Of a DNA stretch of 23,657 nucleotides, positions 811 through 8,722 are shown in pieces. This DNA is from Polyangia bacterium. GTDB lineage: Bacteria > Myxococcota_A > Polyangia > Polyangiales > Polyangiaceae. The stretch lies in the NCBI GenBank assembly GCA_030433055.1, contig JAUILJ010000014.1, positions 1 through 23,657 of the forward strand. The letters run 5' to 3'. The notes beneath the pieces were generated by a model that ran no database searches, was not told the DNA's origin, and worked only from the letters and a program-made list of their open reading frames with translations. The position numbers and the translations under genes were made by a program. Within the stretch, counting starts at the first letter, position 1; each line of letters begins with the position of its first letter.

Positions 811-1797
811 CTAGTCCTGGGCGACGACTCGGTTGCGCCCTGCGCGCTTTGCCCGGTAGAGGCGTCGGTCTGCGGTCGCTACCAGCGCCTCGGCTGTCAC
901 CTGGGTCACGCAGCTCAAGGACGCTACCCCCAGGCTGACGGTGATGTTTGGGAGTCCCGTGTCCACCGGGGCGGGGCGAGCCAGCACCTCACGAATGCGC
1001 TCAGCGACCTGGGTGGCACCGGGATGTCCGATACCTCGGAGCACCACCAGGAACTCCTCCCCCCCATACCGCGCAAAGACGTCCTCAGCGCGTAGCATGT
1101 GGCCCACAGTTTCACTGAGGTGAAGGAGCACTTGGTCTCCTACCGGGTGGCCGTAGCGATCGTTGACCAGCTTGAAATGGTCGACATCGAGCAGGAGCAC
1201 CGCGAGCGCGGAGTGATGCCTCCGGGCATAAGACACCTCCGCAGACAGGCGCTCGTCGAGGTGACTCCGATTGTATGCTCCCGTGAGTGGGTCGCGGATG
1301 CTGGATTCATAGAGCTGAAGCATCGCGCGTTCCTGGGCGGCGTCCACACAGGAGTAGCGGAAGGCGACTCGGGCCCCGAGCTGGATCGTATCTCCATCCG
1401 ACAGCGCGCGCAGCTTGACGCGCTCACCGTTGACGTAGGTTCCGTTTCGGGAACCCAGGTCCTCGACCCAGTGTGCGTCGTGGGCGACAAACAGTTTCGC
1501 GTGGAAACGACTGATACCATCGTCGTCGATGCGGTAGTCGGCGTTCATGTGCCGCCCGACCTGACAGGGTACGCGACTGAGCGTCAACGGCCGACCTGCG
1601 CCCGCGGCGTCCAGGCGGACCAACACGCCGCGGTCTCTCCGTCCAACGCTCTCATCGTGTGCGCCGATGAAGGAGATGCTGGTCGTCTCGTCCTCCCCCC
1701 AACAGCAAGGCTCACGAAAGGGCTCGAGCAGAGTCTCTTTCGAGTTCTGAGGTCGACTCGGCGGGTCGGGGGTGAGGGAATGCGCAGGAACGGTCAC
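811..1797 (-). CDS. FHA-domain diguanylate cyclase (FHA + GGDEF, GGEEF active site, RxxD I-site)
   Basis: FHA signature: GRHMNADYRIDDDGISRFHAKL...GSRNGTYVNGERV. GGDEF domain: DPLTGAYNR, LLLDVDHFKLVNDRYGH, RAEDVFARYGGEEF, LYRAKRAGRNRV. I prefer the start at the in-frame GTG 1797-1795, which overlaps the upstream TGA as GTGA, over the ORF-track ATG at 1860, which would overlap the EAL gene by 67 nt. Confidence 0.88.
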   Translation of the reverse strand: MTVPAHSLTPDPPSRPQNSKETLLEPFREPCCWGEDETTSISFIGAHDESVGRRDRGVLVRLDAAGAGRPLTLSRVPCQVGRHMNADYRIDDDGISRFHAKLFVAHDAHWVEDLGSRNGTYVNGERVKLRALSDGDTIQLGARVAFRYSCVDAAQERAMLQLYESSIRDPLTGAYNRSHLDERLSAEVSYARRHHSALAVLLLDVDHFKLVNDRYGHPVGDQVLLHLSETVGHMLRAEDVFARYGGEEFLVVLRGIGHPGATQVAERIREVLARPAPVDTGLPNITVSLGVASLSCVTQVTAEALVATADRRLYRAKRAGRNRVVAQD

Positions 1798-3020
1798 CAG
1801 TTCAACTCCGGGAAAGCTGGGCCAGGTTTGGCGATGAAGTAGCCTTGGAGCAGGTCGCAACCGAGGTCGATCAACGCGTCGCGCTCTTCGCGCGTCTCCA
1901 CGCCCTCGCCTACGACCAGCATTCCCATGTCTGCGCAGAGCTGCGCGATGGACCGGATGAGCTTCTGCTTCGTCGGCGCCTGATGCACGTCTCTCACGAG
2001 GCTCATGTCGAGCTTCACGATGTCTGGCTCCAGCAGGGCGAAGCTGGTCAGGCCTGCATACCCTGCACCGAGGTCATCGACGGCGATGCGGAAACCCATC
2101 TCGCGCAACACGGCGACTCGGCGCTTCACGTCTTTGATCTCGTCCAGGCTCGAACGCTCCGTGATCTCGAGCACGACTCGATCGGCAACTCGCGAGAGCG
2201 GAGCGTCAGGCTCGTACAGTTGGGAGTCGAGTAGATCCGTCGTGTGCAGATTGACGAACAAGAGCCCGGACTCTGGAGTCACCGCGGACACCGCGCGCTC
2301 TCGAATCGTTCGGCTGAGTTCATCGACCCGCTCCAGCTTGATCGCGGCCTCGATGACGGCGCCGGGGTGAGGCAGACTGGGTTCCTTGGATCGCAGCAGC
2401 GCTTCGTAGCCGTAGACCGCGCCATTGGTGCGCACGATGGGCTGGTAGGCCATCCACAGTGTCGCCAACGCGCTACCGAAGCTCGCCTCCAGGCCTGCGC
2501 GGTCGCCTGCTCCTGCGTTTCCCCCCAAGAGCTCGGCGGCTTCGCGGCGCATGCGCGCCATGCGGTGGAGCCGCACCGCCTTGTCCAACACTTCCTCGAG
2601 GTTGTCGTTCTCGACAGGCTTGGTCAGGTAGTGGAAGGCTCCGTACTCCAGTGCCTTGACGGCGGTGCTCACCGCTGGCTCCCCGGTCACTAGGATCACG
2701 GGCACATCCAGATCGTGCTCTCGGACTTCGCGAAGTAGCTGGATCCCATCCATCCGCGGCATTGCGATGTCACTCAAGATGACGTCGTACTCGTGAGCGT
2801 TGAGCTGCTCGATCGCGGCTTCCCCCCCGGGTGCTGTATCCACGTGGAAGCCACGTAGCGCGAGACAACGGCGAAACGCTCGCAGCAGCGCGGGTTCGTC
2901 ATCGACGACCAGGATTCGACCCTTGGTCGCTGCCGACCACACGCCGCTGGCTTCAGAGCCCCGCTCGGAGGGCGATTTGTCGGTAGTTGAGTGCCGCAGG
3001 GCGACGAGGGGGACGGTCAT
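1794..3020 (-). CDS. response-regulator receiver + EAL c-di-GMP phosphodiesterase
   Basis: REC motifs: ILVVDDEP, DVILSDIAMPRMDG, VILVTG, YLTKP. EAL motifs all present: YEALLRS, FVNLH, LEITERS, AVDDLGAGYAG, VKLDMSLV, GEGVETRE, LLQGYF. Confidence 0.9.
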   Translation of the reverse strand: MTVPLVALRHSTTDKSPSERGSEASGVWSAATKGRILVVDDEPALLRAFRRCLALRGFHVDTAPGGEAAIEQLNAHEYDVILSDIAMPRMDGIQLLREVREHDLDVPVILVTGEPAVSTAVKALEYGAFHYLTKPVENDNLEEVLDKAVRLHRMARMRREAAELLGGNAGAGDRAGLEASFGSALATLWMAYQPIVRTNGAVYGYEALLRSKEPSLPHPGAVIEAAIKLERVDELSRTIRERAVSAVTPESGLLFVNLHTTDLLDSQLYEPDAPLSRVADRVVLEITERSSLDEIKDVKRRVAVLREMGFRIAVDDLGAGYAGLTSFALLEPDIVKLDMSLVRDVHQAPTKQKLIRSIAQLCADMGMLVVGEGVETREERDALIDLGCDLLQGYFIAKPGPAFPELNW

Positions 3021-3098
3021 GAAGCTGATGAACGGCTCCGAATCGCCTTCCCTTAGGCGCTTTTCTGCACCCCTCGCTCAGCCGGGAACAATCCCAGG

Positions 3099-3176
3099 TT
3101 GAACTGACGATTCAAATGAAGATTCGATCGGTAATCAATGGCATCAATCAATTGATCAAATCAATTGGTATTGATC
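3099..3176. promoter_or_regulatory. AT-rich island with iterated TCAAT/ATTGA half-sites, upstream of the minus-strand REC-EAL operon
   Basis: TCAAT occurs at 3135, 3144, 3148 and 3161, and ATTGA at 3151 and 3170. There is a perfect 10-bp palindrome ATCAATTGAT (3147-3156) and an inverted repeat TCAAT-N4-ATTGA (3161-3174). Local GC is far below the window average. Confidence 0.35.
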
Positions 3177-3179
3177 GCC

Positions 3180-5843
3180 ACGGGGGCAGCAAACGCGATG
3201 CTTTTGCGCCTGGTAACGCCGGGCTGCGGGGCAGCGGAGGCGGCAGTGGAGGGGCTTGAGCACGGCGTTCGAAGCTGCTTCTGCCGCTGGCATCGGCCGG
3301 CAACCAGCGACAAATCGCCTAGAATTCGTGGACAGTCAGCGCGATCCGTTGCAAGCTTGGAGTGCTGCAGGGCGCTCGCTGAGGTCTTCGACGACCTCCC
3401 GCCTGGGTGCTTCCCTCGACGCAGGGAGGTCCCCGATGTGCGTTACCTGGGGACGACTGATGCACAAGGTGCCCATAAGCTGTGGACAACCCTGCAAACG
3501 AAGAAACTGCCTTTGGTGGGAGTTTTCTTGTTGATTTGATTGCACGCTTCCGGCATAAACGTTTCTGGAAGTTCGCGGCACATCAAAACCGCGGACGGAT
3601 CGATCGTAGAGGTTACGAGGGGCGCTGCAGGGTCTTCCAAGGAAGGTCCTGAGCCGACTTGAGGGGTGCTTGGCGCGTTCAACGCCACGCTCCAGCGTCG
3701 GTTGAAAAGGCGTCGAGACCATGGCTGCCGCGTCAGACATGGCTCGGGCTGGTGAGAACCGGTTCCTTCGTGGTCGAAGGGGTTCCGGCTTCGTGGAATT
3801 CGATCTCTTTCGCGAGAGATGGTTCAAAGCGAGGCCTTGGCCGGCGATTCAGGACTGTCGTCTTCTAGCGACAGGCCAGGGTTTTCGGTGACATACGAAC
3901 CTCCGGGTGGAGTCGGAGTTGGCGCGTCTTCTCGCAGGGAAGATGCTGACTCGGTTCCACCGACCTTCGAGGGTGGAGGGGCTCTTTGAGTCACTCGATG
4001 CTCTCCTTCGGGAGGGCGAAGCCCTAGGAGGCCGCAGCGCTGAGTTTCTCAGCCAACGAGAGGCGTGAGAGCGTCTCTTGAGCGGTGATCGGACGTCCCA
4101 GGTCGTGCTCGAGCTCGAATTGAAAAGTCGCATTACGCAGTGATGAGCGTGCCCTTGTGCGTGTGCACGCTCCCTTCCGGGGGAGTGTGACGGCGTGCTG
4201 GAGTGTCGGTTTCGGCGCTCGGGGTCGGTTCGCGCGGGATGGTGTTTGCCAGACCGTTCGAGCTGTCGAACAGCTGGCTTGCTGGCTGAGTCGAAGCTTA
4301 CTTGCTGCGAGACGTCGAGGTTCTGCGTCTCCGGGTTCACGATACTCGGAGGGTGCGCTGGACCTTGGCCGTGGTACCTCGCGAGGGGTTCAGGGTTCGC
4401 ACATGGAAAAACCGTGAGCGGACACCAGCCATGGTGACAGTCGACGTCAGAAGCACGCGCAGGCGGCACGGCGTAGAGCGTTCGACAAGGATGCTCGCGG
4501 GGTGCGCTCTCGTGTGTGGAAGTCGGAGTTTCGCGTGAACGGAGCTTCGGTCGGAGTTGGCGTGAGCGCTTGCGTCTCGCGTCGGGCTGCCGATGACTTG
4601 GATGTGAGCTTGGGTACTCGTCTTTGAAATGCAGGTTGCAGGTATCGGTCGAACGTATCTTTGGTGCGTTGTCCGCTCGTTCCTTCGGGGGCGGAAGGAT
4701 GACGGATCTAGGCTCGAGCGAGGTGCGCGTTCCCAGTTGAATGTAGGGGACCGCGGACCGAGAGAGGGTCGAACGGGTGCGCGAAGCTGGGGTACACGGA
4801 ACAGTGCGCTCTGGCGTCGGCCTAGGAATGGGAGTTGCTAGGATTTCGGCACGGTACTAGATGTACTGGAGCATCGGTGTCTGGCTCTCTAAACCAGAGT
4901 TTGGACCCCCTGCTCCTGGCTCCTCGGGTGAAGCCTCGTTGGTGGAGCTACTTGAGATTCAGATTAGTTCCTTACGGAAGTGATTGGGGTCGCGGGTTGT
5001 TCCTTGGGCGGGGGCGAAAGCCAACGAACAGTACGAGGTTGCATGGGCTCTCGGGTCCATGTCGAGATGCTGGCAGCGATGTCAGCGTCAGACTCGCACC
5101 CAACAGGTCAGCCGGTTCGCCTTGTCTAGAGGCAGGGAGGACGGGTGTCCGAGGCGCGACAGAGTACATCAGCGGAAGGGGTTTCGTGATCACGGCTCTC
5201 CCAGCTCCCGCCACGAATCACCGGCAGCGATGTCGGTGATGGTTCGCTCGCCTAACAAGCGAGATGAAGCGTCGGATCGACCGCCCAATCGGGTTCGGTC
5301 CGTCCAGGGCGTCTTCAGGACGGAGCGCAGAGGGTCAGTCGCTCGCGGTTACGTGGTTTCGCTTCGATCGTCCAACGGGTTGCTTCGGCAGCTCGGGGTG
5401 GTCAGCGGACACGCGGCTGCGCGGAATGCCAGTGTTCGAGGTTCGTCAGCTCGTCCCCCACAGGATGGGTTGGCCACGTCCTTCGCCTTCACTCTAGAGG
5501 TGAACTGTTCTCTGCCCGAGAGGGTGAGTTGAGCAGGGGGTGGGAAGTGCGGCGGTTTCGCCGGTTCGGAAGCAGAGCCACCAGCCTCGCTGGGCGCATC
5601 ACACAAGCCTCCGCCAAAGCTGGGCAAGATAATTCCTTGCTCACCCAACTCAGGTCCTGCCAGCGCGAACTGCGCGGGCCTGACGAGAGAACCTGTATTG
5701 AGTCGACGATGTCACGTCACGCCGCAAGCGTGTGCGTGGGGCTGATGAGCCGCCAAGTGCGGCGCGGGGGCTTAATTGCTCACCATCGGCAAGCGACGCT
5801 TCCCGAAGGCAACCAGGGTGACCTGGTTGCCTTTCGTTTTTTT
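3180..5843 (+). ncRNA. candidate large structured non-coding RNA locus (one or several transcripts; 5' end undefined; no known family recognised)
   Basis: No credible ORF on either strand. GC is lower than in the flanking genes. Short perfect hairpins with tetraloops are frequent. The words GTCGGAGTT(GGCG) and GGTTCG recur. The region ends at a plus-strand intrinsic terminator. See findings for coordinates. This is not demonstrated. Confidence 0.3.
5806..5843 (+). terminator. Rho-independent terminator (plus strand only)
   Basis: Perfect 10-bp stem GGCAACCAGG (5808-5817) / CCTGGTTGCC (5822-5831) with GUGA loop (5818-5821), followed by TTTCGTTTTTTT (5832-5843). A5806 and A5807 can extend the stem into the T tract. 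The reverse complement has no U-run after the stem. Confidence 0.8.
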
Positions 5844-5999
5844 GTGCTGCGTGGTCGTAGCTGAGCCGTCTGTTCCTCCGCCCGACGCCCGGTCGCACCG
5901 CGCTGCGGTGGGCGAGCTGGCGTGGAGGCGCCGAAACGGGGCGAGTGGCAGGCGCGAACCGTTGCCCACCGGGAGCCTGTGTGCTTCGCTCGCCCGCCC

Positions 6000-6950
6000 A
6001 TGCATGAGCGCCCCGTACTGCCCAGATTGTCGCCGCTCGGGGGGCGCTGGGCGTACCTCCGGCTGCTTGTCAGCGCGTGCATCGTTCTGATCGGGGCAGG
6101 GGCGTGCGAGCACAAGCAGGAGCCGACAGCGGAGGATGGTCGGCCGCGGTTCGTCTCGCTGGCCCCCGCCATCACCGAGACGCTCTTCGCCATCGGGGCC
6201 GGCGACCGAGTCGTCGCGGTGAGCCAGTATTGCGAACGGCCGGCAGAGGCCAAGCGGCTGCCTCAGGTGGGCACCGCGATGACCCCGAACTACGAGGCGA
6301 TTGCCAGGCTCCGCCCCACGTTAATCCTTACGGAAACGAATAAGAGTGCCAAGAGCAAAGAACTGAAGCAGCTCGGGCCTACGCTGGAGCTGCCGTGGCT
6401 CACCTTGCCCGAGATCACGCAGAGCATTCGCGAGCTCGGAGAGAAGACGGGACACAGCGAGAAGGCCAACGAGATCGCACTGCGCATGTCCAGTGAGCTG
6501 GGGAAAGAGCCTCCACCTGACGCTCCCAAGGTGCTGCTGGTGCTGGGCTACGGTGCGAAGCCCAGCATCGATGAAGTCTGGTTCATTCGCAGAAATAGCC
6601 TTCACGGCGCTGCCCTCGCCTCTGCAGGGGGCCGCAACGTCGTGGATCGGGATGTCACTGGGCTACCCCGGCTCAAGGTTCAGGAGGTGCTACAGCTCGA
6701 TCCCGAACAGATCATCGTCTTGGTTCAGGCGAAGCGCAGCGAGGAGGCGGCCATTCTGGCCGCGTGGAAGAAGCTCGAGCCGCTGCAAGCGGTGAAGCAT
6801 CAGCGCGTCGCGGTGCTTGAGGCACCCGAAGCCTTCGGCAACGGTCCGAGCATTCTCGAACTGCGAGTGAAGCTGCAGCGCCAGATCGCCGCGCTGGGGG
6901 GGCCGCGACCGGCAGCGAGCTCGGCGGCAACGGCTGGAAGCGCACCGTGA
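6000..6950 (+). CDS. ABC transporter periplasmic substrate-binding protein, BtuF/FecB (class III) family, probable lipoprotein
   Basis: RFVSLAPAITETLFAIGAGDRVVAVSQYC...PNYEAIARLRPTLILTE is typical of cobalamin/heme/siderophore binding proteins. Start is placed at ATG 6000 (MHERP...LLVSACIVLIGAGAC signal with Cys) rather than the ORF-track ATG at 5922. Confidence 0.85.
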   Translation: MHERPVLPRLSPLGGRWAYLRLLVSACIVLIGAGACEHKQEPTAEDGRPRFVSLAPAITETLFAIGAGDRVVAVSQYCERPAEAKRLPQVGTAMTPNYEAIARLRPTLILTETNKSAKSKELKQLGPTLELPWLTLPEITQSIRELGEKTGHSEKANEIALRMSSELGKEPPPDAPKVLLVLGYGAKPSIDEVWFIRRNSLHGAALASAGGRNVVDRDVTGLPRLKVQEVLQLDPEQIIVLVQAKRSEEAAILAAWKKLEPLQAVKHQRVAVLEAPEAFGNGPSILELRVKLQRQIAALGGPRPAASSAATAGSAP

Positions 6951-7768
6951 CTCGCCTCGAGCTCCAGGGCGTGAGCTTGACGCTGAGCGGAAGCCAGGTA
7001 GTCGCAGGCGTGGAGCTGGAGATCGGAGCGGGAGACTTCGTCGCGCTCCTGGGGCCCAATGGGTCGGGCAAGACGAGCCTGATCAAGATCTGCTTGGGGC
7101 TATATCCGCCGGGAAGTGGCGAGGCTCGGCTCGACGGAGTCGCCCTGGGCGCGCTCGCGCCGAAGCTTCGCGCCGCGAAGCTCGCTTGGCTGCCCCAGCG
7201 CTGGGAGCCCAGTGAGCCGCTTCCGGTGGTGGAAGTCGTCGCCGCCGCGCGCTATCGGCTGGCGGAGCCTTACGCGGTCGCCGCGCGCGAGGCGCGGCTC
7301 GCGCTCGAGCGCGTGGGGGCGGCCGCGTTTGCAGCGCGGCGCATCGACGAGCTGTCGGGAGGTGAACTCCAGCGCGTGCTGCTCGCTTGCGTCGTGGCTC
7401 AGCAGGCGCCGCTGCTGTTCTTCGATGAGCCTGCCAATCACCTCGATCCGCAGCACCAGATCGCGACGTATCGCCTGCTCGGCGAGCTATGGCGGAGCGG
7501 CGCAGGGGTGCTGTGTGTGACCCACGACATCAACCTGCTGGCGCATGTGGGTCGCGCCGAGGACATCCGTGTGCTCGGCATGCGGGGGGGGAGGGTCACC
7601 CTGGACACTCGCTACGCCGATCCCGAGCTGGCTCGAGGTCTGTCTGAACTCTACGCCGCGGACTACGCGGAGTTTCAAGATGGTTCCGTGCGGCATTTCT
7701 ACGTGCGAGGCCCAGCAGGAGCCGCCAGTGGAGTGTCGGAGGCTGAGCCGCCTCGAGGAGACGCATGA
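6947..7768 (+). CDS. ABC transporter ATP-binding protein (FecE/BtuD/HmuV-like)
   Basis: Walker A GPNGSGKTS, signature LSGGELQRV, Walker B LLFFDEP, H-loop VTHD. The GTG start overlaps the upstream TGA as GTGA (6947-6950). Confidence 0.9.
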   Translation: MTRLELQGVSLTLSGSQVVAGVELEIGAGDFVALLGPNGSGKTSLIKICLGLYPPGSGEARLDGVALGALAPKLRAAKLAWLPQRWEPSEPLPVVEVVAAARYRLAEPYAVAAREARLALERVGAAAFAARRIDELSGGELQRVLLACVVAQQAPLLFFDEPANHLDPQHQIATYRLLGELWRSGAGVLCVTHDINLLAHVGRAEDIRVLGMRGGRVTLDTRYADPELARGLSELYAADYAEFQDGSVRHFYVRGPAGAASGVSEAEPPRGDA

Positions 7769-7780
7769 GCGGAAGGCGCG

Positions 7781-8722
7781 ATGCGTAACCTCTCCGTCTT
7801 TCTCCACGCGGCGCTGTGCCTCGCGCTGATCGCCGTGGTGCCGCTGATCGGACCCAGCCTGGATGTCCCGAGCGGCGACTTCATCCTGTGGCAGCTCCGC
7901 GTGCCCCGGCTGCTCGTGGGGGCCTTGGTAGGGGGCACCCTGGGTCTCAGCGGCGCGGTCTACCAGGCGCTGTTTCGCAACGGCCTGGCGACGCCGAGTA
8001 CGGTGGGGACGCTCGCCGGTGCGACCCTGGGCGCGCTCCTGGTGCTGGTGCTTGGCGGGGGCAGCGCCCTCGGGCTGCCGGGGGTCGCCGTTGCGGCGTT
8101 CCTCGGCGCGATCGGGCTCAGCGCGCTCGTACTGGCTGTTGCCGCGAGGCAGCGCGCGTCGATGAGTGACGTGCTCCTGGCGGGCATCGCGGTCACACTG
8201 GCTGCCAGCGCTCTGAGCACGGGGCTCCAGTACACCGCCGACAGTCGCGCGCTCTTCGCGGCCGCGCAGTGGTCCCTCGGCAGCTTGCCTCAGGTGGGCT
8301 ACCAGGCGGTGCTCTGGCTGCTCCCGTTCACGTTGGCGTCTTCGCTCGTCATGCTGCTGTTGGCTCGCCCGCTTCAGGCGCTGGTGGCGGGCGAGGAGGT
8401 CGCGGCGACGCAAGGTGTGTCGATCCCGCGGGTGCGCGCGCTGGCGCTCGGAGCGGGCGCGCTCGGCGTGGCCGCGTGCGTCGCCTGGTGTGGCCCCATC
8501 GCCTTCGTGGGGCTGCTCGTTCCACACCTCGTGCGTGGCCTGGGAGCGGTCACGTATCGGCGCCTCTTGCCGCTGAGCTGGCTCTATGGGGCGACGCTGC
8601 TGGTGTGGTGTGACACGCTCGCGCGCTTGGTGTGGCCCGGGGGTGAGCTGCCCGTCGGCGTCGTCACCGCTGCGTTGGGCGCGCCGGCGCTGATCTTCGT
8701 CGTTGCCCGACGCCGGCGCTAG
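7781..8722 (+). CDS. FecCD/BtuC-family ABC transporter permease
   Basis: LWQLRVPRLLVGALVGGTLGLSGAVYQALFRNGLATPSTVG plus a polytopic hydrophobic profile. Located 13 nt after the ATPase gene. Confidence 0.9.
   Translation: MRNLSVFLHAALCLALIAVVPLIGPSLDVPSGDFILWQLRVPRLLVGALVGGTLGLSGAVYQALFRNGLATPSTVGTLAGATLGALLVLVLGGGSALGLPGVAVAAFLGAIGLSALVLAVAARQRASMSDVLLAGIAVTLAASALSTGLQYTADSRALFAAAQWSLGSLPQVGYQAVLWLLPFTLASSLVMLLLARPLQALVAGEEVAATQGVSIPRVRALALGAGALGVAACVAWCGPIAFVGLLVPHLVRGLGAVTYRRLLPLSWLYGATLLVWCDTLARLVWPGGELPVGVVTAALGAPALIFVVARRRR

Follow-up and report, generated by a model that had tools for sequence, protein, structure and literature searches.

The first 23,657 nucleotides (nt) of contig JAUILJ010000014.1 in the Polyangia bacterium assembly GCA_030433055.1 (Myxococcota, Polyangiaceae; this whole stretch is called the window below) harbor what is very probably the gene for a structured, trans-acting non-coding RNA (ncRNA), located at 3567–5843 on the plus strand. 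The RNA is the product of an independent, chromosomal transcription unit that is single-copy in the window, and it belongs to a previously unclassified family with members of 1.73–2.39 kb. It is neither a cis-regulatory leader nor a messenger RNA (mRNA) or an antisense regulator, and would work in trans, as a stable molecule with an architectural or a catalytic role. A preliminary description of the region, which was made from the sequence without database searches, had proposed a giant structured ncRNA of ~2.3 kb that is transcribed from the plus strand between a promoter at 3531–3559 and a terminator at 5843. Conservation, covariation and strand-specific folding, together with the lack of any frameshifted remnant of a protein gene or mobile element, support this proposal. 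Of the region then delimited, 3180–5843, the 3′ end stands, but the start has to be moved to ~3567–3577, as 3180–3565 lies outside the RNA. The hairpin at 3393–3431, which had been counted among the structures of the RNA, also falls outside, and 3021–3455 is poorly conserved intergenic DNA.

Relatives and distribution

The first relatives were obtained by translating a spurious open reading frame (ORF; 3849–4469, minus strand) and searching with it against a protein collection, which led to a single "hypothetical protein" annotated on a pair of JGI contigs (L001 and L002). At the DNA level these contigs are homologous to the window throughout (3582–5698 and 3577–5212, respectively) with 87–88% identity, and the alignments contain insertions and deletions that are not multiples of three as well as compensatory hairpin changes visible by eye. 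A scan of the genome collection with a concatenated pseudo-peptide from conserved blocks yielded three loci sharing the neighbor genes of the window, two of them in Polyangiaceae metagenome-assembled genomes (MAGs; L003 and L004) and one in a MAG labeled "delta proteobacterium" (L005). The RNA is 79% identical in L003 and 77% in L004, on par with the flanking genes (76–79%), and the alignable sequence of these two syntenic loci runs from ~3436–3462 to 5842–5848. L005 aligns by blastn in patches only. The most conserved block of the five-way alignment (window 4618–4642, 20 specified bases) then served as the motif for scanning the metagenome collection, where it retrieved 85 contigs. A profile search identified 77 of 90 loci as true members and the remaining 13 as chance motif matches; with two further genomic loci added to the 77, the family comprises 44 non-redundant full-length members of 1.73–2.39 kb.

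Eight relatives are located on chromosomal contigs, six of them together with neighbor genes of the window, and all four main sequence clades are present at the same syntenic chromosomal site. The chromosomal relatives that carry an organism name are all Polyangiaceae or "delta proteobacterium" MAGs. A protein search with spurious ORFs of the short clade, made for genomic context, returned transcript-length contigs only. The RNA family is restricted to one bacterial family, the soil and sediment Polyangiaceae (Myxococcota), in which it is vertically inherited.

Covariation, folding and strand

The alignment used for structure prediction contains the 44 full-length members at less than 94% identity, with a mean column identity of 47%. 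RNAalifold predicted 552 pairs in 76 helices for these sequences, which were compared with column shuffles and with controls in which the 3′ partner of each pair was slid along the alignment:

Canonical cells: 88.0% observed; 76.4% in 200 column shuffles; 40.5–43.3% with the 3′ partner slid by 1–3 columns
Pairs changed on both sides: 387 observed; 288 shuffled; 212–233 slid
Covariation score: 0.431 observed; 0.235 ± 0.002 shuffled; 0.10–0.13 slid

Covariation is far above both controls, also for the 92 long-range pairs, of which 90.7% are paired as compared to 81.5% after shuffling. Their covariation score is 0.372 (0.217 ± 0.005 shuffled, 0.07–0.11 slid), and none of 500 shuffles reached the observed value in any of five measures. 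An independent fold of seven long-clade sequences (76–88% identical) contains 825 pairs, 95% canonical and 192 compensatory, and recovers the same long-range helices. The preliminary description had listed short hairpins found in the single sequence; about six of the 13 inside the RNA coincide with comparative helices, whereas the rest are replaced by alternative or long-range pairings.

When sliding 200-nt segments were folded against dinucleotide shuffles, folding energies exceeded the controls on the plus strand only. Inside the region the mean z-score of this strand is −1.93, with 26 of 26 segments negative, as compared to −0.73 for the minus strand; the flanking genes have values of about −0.2 to −0.3. 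The segment 4105–4617 reaches a minimum free energy (MFE) of −261.1 kcal/mol on the plus strand (z = −6.59, with 0 of 100 shuffles as stable), but only −160.5 kcal/mol on its complement (z = +0.21). Furthermore, G-U combinations make up 17.7% and A-C combinations 2.4% of the paired cells (7:1), and therefore the structure belongs to the plus-strand transcript, in agreement with the earlier view that G-U pairing is sensible only in a plus-strand RNA. The excess of G over C and of T over A noted for the plus strand was likewise seen, with a GC skew of +0.10 to +0.30 across ~3450–5550, and the RNA consists of 35.4% G, 26.0% C, 21.5% U, and 17.2% A. A lower G+C content than in the flanking genes, which had also been put forward, holds for the gap (57–63%), but the contrast is smaller than claimed: the upstream genes have 60–68% G+C, and the downstream operon alone reaches 70–74%.

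Ends of the gene

The following elements delimit the gene:

3455–3530, no strand assigned: conserved upstream box, GTGCCCATAAGCTGTGGACAACCCTG ... inverted repeat GAAGAAAC-N14-GTTTTCTT; conservation begins here
3531–3559, plus strand: promoter-like element, −35 TTGATT at 3531–3536, 17-nt spacer, −10 CATAAA at 3554–3559
3567–5843, plus strand: RNA gene, ~2.28 kb, with its probable start at the conserved GGAAGUUCGC and its 3′ end at the terminator T-run
5805–5843, plus strand: intrinsic terminator, stem GAAGGCAACCAGG / CCUGGUUGCCUUU, GUGA loop, then U7

In seven genomic loci, an element of the form TTGnnn-N17/18-CATnAn lies 7–8 nt before the conserved GGAAGUUCGC. Besides the window, its position and form are kept in L003, L004, L005 (TTGATC-N18-CATAAG), L072, L116 (TTGCCG-N17-CATAAC), and L118 (TTGCTT-N17-CATTAA). 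Of the weak promoter proposed earlier, the conserved position thus speaks for the assignment, but TTGATT-N17-CATAAA scores under the threshold of a consensus promoter scanner; judged by its conservation, the element is a putative promoter. Transcription probably starts at the conserved GGAAGUUCGC, 7–8 nt past the −10 element, with the exact position deduced from this spacing. The family profile matches the window a single time, at 3577–5812.

The intrinsic terminator, which the preliminary description had also placed on the plus strand, is strong: its 13-bp stem at 5805–5834 is followed by the T-run. A GUGA-loop hairpin and U-run with compensatory stem changes are present in each of the eight loci whose sequence continues beyond the 3′ end of the RNA (the window, L003, L004, L005, L015, L072, L116, and L118). 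The conserved promoter-like element and terminator hairpin therefore place the primary transcript at ~3567–5843, with a length of ~2.28 kb.

The upstream box at 3455–3530 is kept in L003, L004 and partly in L005, includes a DnaA-box-like TGTGGACAA, and may belong to the RNA promoter as an element with a regulatory or UP-like function. A reading of the upstream TGGACA...TGCA box as a sigma-54 site was rejected by eye; its spacing falls 2 nt short, and L003 has not kept it.

Domain architecture

The comparative model consists of five domains, each closed by a long-range helix, with an invariant core and a variable periphery, and it brings the 5′ and 3′ ends together. In window coordinates, all on the plus strand, the predicted elements are:

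3582–3584 / 5708–5710: 5′/3′ closing interaction, 3 bp, CG-to-GC swap
3586–4104: domain I, closing helix 3586–3605 / 4087–4104, 17 bp, 11 changed on both sides
4105–4617: domain II, closing helix 4105–4126 / 4597–4617, 20 bp, 13 changed on both sides
4614–4641: invariant core strand, GU.CUCGUCUUUGAAAUG..UUGCAG, with columns invariant in 44 members; the search motif that retrieved the family
4618–4637 / 5690–5706: central long-range helix, 17 bp, 91–99% paired; encloses domains III–V
4644–4855: domain III, closing helix 4644–4653 / 4844–4855, 10 bp, 5 changed on both sides
4860–5170: domain IV, closing helix 4860–4867 / 5163–5170, 8 bp, 5 changed on both sides, 97% paired
4949–5052 and 5086–5106: clade-specific expansion segments of domain IV
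5174–5615: domain V, closing helix 5174–5190 / 5598–5615, in the family and long-clade folds
5207–5318 and 5347–5588: long-clade expansion segments of domain V, missing from at least 80% of short-clade members
5576–5698: ultra-conserved 3′ core, 123 nt 100% identical to L001 (overall ~88%)
5712–5790: 3′ terminal hairpins, 5712–5739 (13 bp, 11 compensatory) and 5741–5747 / 5784–5790 (7 bp, 100% paired)
5778–5796 region: conserved CCACCAUCGGCAAG box

The closing helix of domain I was found independently in the long-clade fold, and the single-sequence MFE structure closes domain II identically at 4105–4617. The central helix joins the invariant core (CUCGUCUUUGAAAUG..UUGCAG) to the ultra-conserved 3′ region, and its part 4628–4637 / 5690–5699 is identical in the long-clade fold; the invariant core strand of 25 nt has its 3′ partner ~1 kb away. 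The hairpin 5663–5667 / 5671–5675 carries an AAC triloop that is invariant in 44 of 44 members, and other near-invariant loops are UCGC, CGCUGC, UGCG, UCAC, GNRA, and UUCG. The RNAs of the window clade are ~480 nt longer because of the expansion segments in domains IV and V. All of these segments have a covarying structure of their own; in the two of domain V, 15 of 55 and 20 of 91 pairs, respectively, are compensatory among the seven long-clade sequences.

An 8-nt hairpin loop (alignment columns 317–326) carries a self-complementary UGCA, AGCU or (A)GCGC(U), switching between clades, in 30 of the 44 members. Statistically this observation is weak, with 33 loops screened and an imperfect register, and the hairpin is absent from the window clade, where its place would be between 3756 and 3764. 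The switching palindromic loop of the short clades bears a weak likeness to the covarying kissing loops of OLE and GOLLD, and it is the sole, weak hint that the RNA might associate with itself.

Coding potential and similarity to known RNA families

The gap had been described as poor in ORFs, and indeed its longest start-to-stop ORF (3021–5921) has at most 206 amino acids (aa), while a Pfam search of the spurious ORFs gave no match. Of the 28 stop-free stretches of at least 50 codons, not a single one is kept intact in L003, L004, and L045 alike (full-length, 78–81% identical), and the longest open stretches are erratic among members. In JGI and Logan data, public gene callers place "hypothetical proteins" of 160–270 aa (P0001–P0013; L001:981–1688 and others) on both strands of the RNA, which are almost certainly false gene calls. 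From member to member, the called ORFs differ in strand and frame, and they share only 37–53% identity where the DNA is much more alike. It is very improbable that the transcript has a dual function, in the sense that the structured RNA has a coding role as well, with one or several small proteins of less than 50 aa as its real product. The test for intact frames covered stretches of at least 50 codons, and the gene callers do assign hypothetical proteins to family members, but these are inconsistent as described, the indels are not multiples of three, the most conserved blocks lack any third-position variation, and conservation tracks base pairing.

The preliminary description had recognized no signature of the known RNAs that it considered, and the RNA indeed belongs to no known family. 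A search of the whole window against Rfam 15 at gathering thresholds gave no match, neither to ribosomal RNA (rRNA), RNase P, transfer-messenger RNA, signal recognition particle RNA, 6S RNA, group I and II introns or riboswitches, nor to OLE, GOLLD, ROOL, HEARO or raiA. At E ≤ 10, the region 2900–6100 yielded one noise match to a microRNA (17.9 bits, as compared to a gathering score of 85), and ten diverse family members had no match at E ≤ 1. No description of a kilobase-scale bacterial ncRNA of this kind or of a large myxobacterial RNA was found in the full-text literature that was searched, which does not cover all journals. The idea of a CsrB-like protein sponge was dismissed, as no loop motif is repeated.

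Genomic context

The RNA gene lies in a gap of 2.9 kb that separates the start of a REC-EAL response-regulator gene (1794–3020, minus strand) from an ATP-binding cassette (ABC) transporter operon (5922–8722, plus strand) consisting of Peripla_BP_2, ABC ATPase, and FecCD transporter genes. The window shares this operon with L003 and L004. L005 and L072 lack it and have a convergent FadL-like gene directly after the RNA terminator, and downstream of the RNA in L015, L116 and L118 there are other genes (MerR-type in L116), the downstream genes being mostly convergent. Therefore, the operon represents a clade-specific insertion beside the RNA gene. This bears on the possibility that the transporter operon is controlled by the RNA as a structured 5′ leader of great length, in the manner of a riboswitch or attenuator. 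Such a leader would be compatible with the common orientation of RNA and operon and with the short distance of ~80–160 nt from the terminator to the first operon gene, but it is highly improbable given that five loci (L005, L072, L015, L116, and L118) have other, mostly convergent genes in this place, that the terminator is strong and conserved everywhere, that contigs end at this terminator, and that no Rfam riboswitch matches.

The other genes of the window encode an FHA-GGDEF protein, a FadL/TodX-like outer-membrane protein, an L,D-transpeptidase, a HEAT-repeat protein, and several unknowns. No transfer RNA (tRNA), phage gene, transposase or insertion sequence was found among the window genes, and the surroundings consist of ordinary chromosomal genes. 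The wider neighborhood common to the clades includes genes for a FadL-like protein, p392, a NUDIX protein, and a YkuD-type transpeptidase, and it is kept even where the proteins are only 30–66% identical.

Upstream, an FHA-GGDEF diguanylate cyclase (811–1860) and the REC-EAL phosphodiesterase (1794–3020) are encoded on the minus strand, divergently from the RNA gene, and L003, L004, and L005 have the pair upstream of the RNA as well. This arrangement could be plain synteny or reflect a regulatory link to cyclic di-GMP signaling. As the mechanically predicted ORFs of the two proteins overlap by 67 nt, one start codon is probably located farther downstream. At 3120–3170, in the stretch that leads from the REC-EAL start to the RNA promoter, there is an AT-rich, palindromic ATCAAT / CAATTG cluster in which a 13-nt unit is repeated in tandem, with 2.7 copies; L003, L004, and L005 have similar AT-rich "ATCAA" clusters in the corresponding position. 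The strongly negative fold z-scores of both strands in 3001–3300 are due to this palindromic cluster, which may serve the divergent promoters as an operator or as a site for a nucleoid protein.

Transcript-length contigs and mobile elements

Most member contigs measure 1.71–1.86 kb. Of the 77 contigs, 61 extend to the 5′ end of the profile, and 53 of these go beyond it by no more than 5 nt; the 3′ end is reached by 69, of which 62 continue for no more than 9 nt, and 54 have both ends. They begin at (C)GG(C/U)ACAU, which corresponds to window 3576–3577, with transcript-like starts spanning 3572–3577, and stop within the terminator hairpin near window 5822. Dozens of public contigs thus start and end at the predicted ends of the plus-strand transcript, and with such a pattern they appear to be assembled transcripts rather than DNA contigs. 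The contig ends strongly suggest that, as a distinct molecule of full length, the RNA attains a high steady-state abundance in wetland, sediment, and soil communities. In one contig (L047:1774–1945), the first ~170 nt of the RNA are duplicated in inverted orientation and fused to its 5′ end. This duplicate resembles a snap-back chimera typical of complementary DNA synthesis and is consistent with an RNA origin of the contigs.

The near-identical unit length of the ~54 contigs with both ends, together with the few genomic contigs known for some clades, could also be explained by an RNA replicon or a multicopy DNA element whose chromosomal copies are integrations. We consider this as improbable as a leader function. 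The four main clades occupy one syntenic chromosomal site, complete with terminator and, where upstream sequence exists, promoter-like element; no replicase or other ORF is encoded; the RNA is not found in viral contig collections; and in L003 and L004 it has diverged like the flanking genes (77–79% as compared to 76–79%).

Searches for mobile elements gave no indication of another origin of the gene. Neither blastn against plasmid and phage collections nor a pseudo-peptide search of viral contigs yielded a match, and the 24 matches of a 17-nt motif from the 3′ core in viral contigs were all recognized as chance matches by profile search. Tandem and dispersed repeat searches detected trivial repeats only and no terminal inverted repeats, and the RNA gene is therefore neither a repeat array nor a CRISPR-like element. 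A decayed protein gene or mobile or prophage remnant with chance hairpins in GC-rich DNA, which might be suspected from the length of the gap, its few ORFs in a dense genome, and a G+C content slightly under that of parts of its surroundings, is the least probable alternative and can practically be dismissed, because such a single-copy region without Pfam match, phage or plasmid similarity, repeats or intact ORFs in three relatives should not retain 77–88% identity, compensatory substitutions and invariant blocks next to neighbor proteins that are just 30–66% identical, and because 88–95% canonical pairing and a 123-nt identical block are unexpected of a pseudogene.

Evidence against a trans-acting RNA

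Several points weigh against the interpretation as a gene for a structured trans-acting ncRNA. Firstly, the RNA was not detected within 10 kb of the shared YkuD neighborhood in two Polyangiaceae-type loci with NUDIX-YkuD genes, L115 (GCA_041389725.1, JAWKRG010000010.1), which also encodes FadL and p396, and L117 (JGI 3300048564). Therefore, the RNA is not universal or not always found at this site, and in these two genomes its gene has either been lost or is located elsewhere. Secondly, the short JGI and Logan contigs are taken for metatranscriptome assemblies because of their ends. Thirdly, the intactness test covered stretches of at least 50 codons, which leaves room for very small ORFs. Fourthly, the locus offers no hint of a protein partner, ligand or activity, and no gene is both adjacent and co-oriented across clades. 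Finally, the window sequence forms canonical pairs at 70% of the family consensus pairs, as compared to 775 of 806 pairs in the long-clade fold. As the family consensus fits the window less well than the long-clade fold, details of the local helices in window coordinates are provisional.

Comparison with other large RNAs and possible function

GOLLD, ROOL and OLE are structurally remarkable RNAs of unknown function. The former two are encoded in phages or prophages, often beside tRNA clusters, whereas OLE RNA adjoins the gene of a co-conserved partner protein, oapA. To our knowledge, these three are the largest structured bacterial RNAs apart from rRNA, with sizes below ~1 kb. They are regarded as large ornate bacterial ncRNAs, and structures of them have been solved by cryo-electron microscopy (cryo-EM; PMC12286853); of the three, GOLLD is the largest, with many members exceeding 800 nt. 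With more than ~500 nt, no coding function and a conserved fold supported by covariation, the polyangiaceous RNA answers the description of a large ornate ncRNA. Like GOLLD, ROOL and OLE it is a stand-alone, highly structured and apparently abundant ncRNA with covarying helices, GNRA and UUCG loops, a conserved core, and a variable periphery. However, it matches none of their covariance models, is two to three times longer (1.73–2.39 kb), and differs from them in its five domains, laid out like those of rRNA. Unlike GOLLD and ROOL it is chromosomal instead of phage-borne, with no tRNA in the window, and unlike OLE it has no adjacent partner-protein gene: the divergent REC-EAL gene lies upstream in the window and L003–L005, and the downstream genes vary.

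Similarities also exist to 16S and 23S rRNA, which have a comparable size, domains closed by long-range helices, 5′ and 3′ regions that come together, and an invariant core with peripheral lineage-specific expansion segments; in addition, the RNA, like rRNA, appears to be assembled in full length from environmental samples, provided that the contigs derive from RNA. In contrast to rRNA, it is single-copy and limited to one bacterial family, it matches no small-subunit, large-subunit or 5S rRNA model at permissive thresholds, and an rrn operon context is lacking, as neither tRNA nor 5S genes are adjacent to it. With RNase P RNA and group II introns the RNA shares a core that is built from distant strands and surrounded by variable peripheral domains, but there is no model match and no recognized catalytic motif. 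Moreover, it is five times the size of RNase P RNA, and it lacks the intron-encoded protein, flanking exons or mobile-element signature of group II introns.

Since an invariant core with a variable periphery also typifies rRNA, RNase P, group II introns, and OLE, GOLLD and ROOL, three functions come into consideration. Tentatively, the RNA may form the core of a large ribonucleoprotein, a reading that we favor over an RNA-only assembly or a ribozyme. A homo-oligomeric assembly made of RNA only, as in GOLLD, ROOL or OLE, appears unlikely, and a ribozyme is no more likely than this, with any catalysis being pure speculation. On present evidence, the RNA represents a new class, and apart from rRNA no family of larger structured RNAs has been seen in bacteria. 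It is possible, albeit on balance doubtful, that it is the founding member of a new kilobase-scale class of bacterial RNA whose core is the active center of a ribozyme or organizes a large ribonucleoprotein or RNA cage of polyangiaceous myxobacteria.

In public data this region is mis-annotated as hypothetical proteins, which a covariance model of the family would correct. The RNA is a tractable target for cryo-EM, pull-downs, and genetics. An RNA of 1.7–2.4 kb would extend the size range of bacterial functional RNAs two- to threefold, and it bears on the question of how much large-RNA biology, be it ribozymes, RNA machines or cages, uncultivated lineages still hide.

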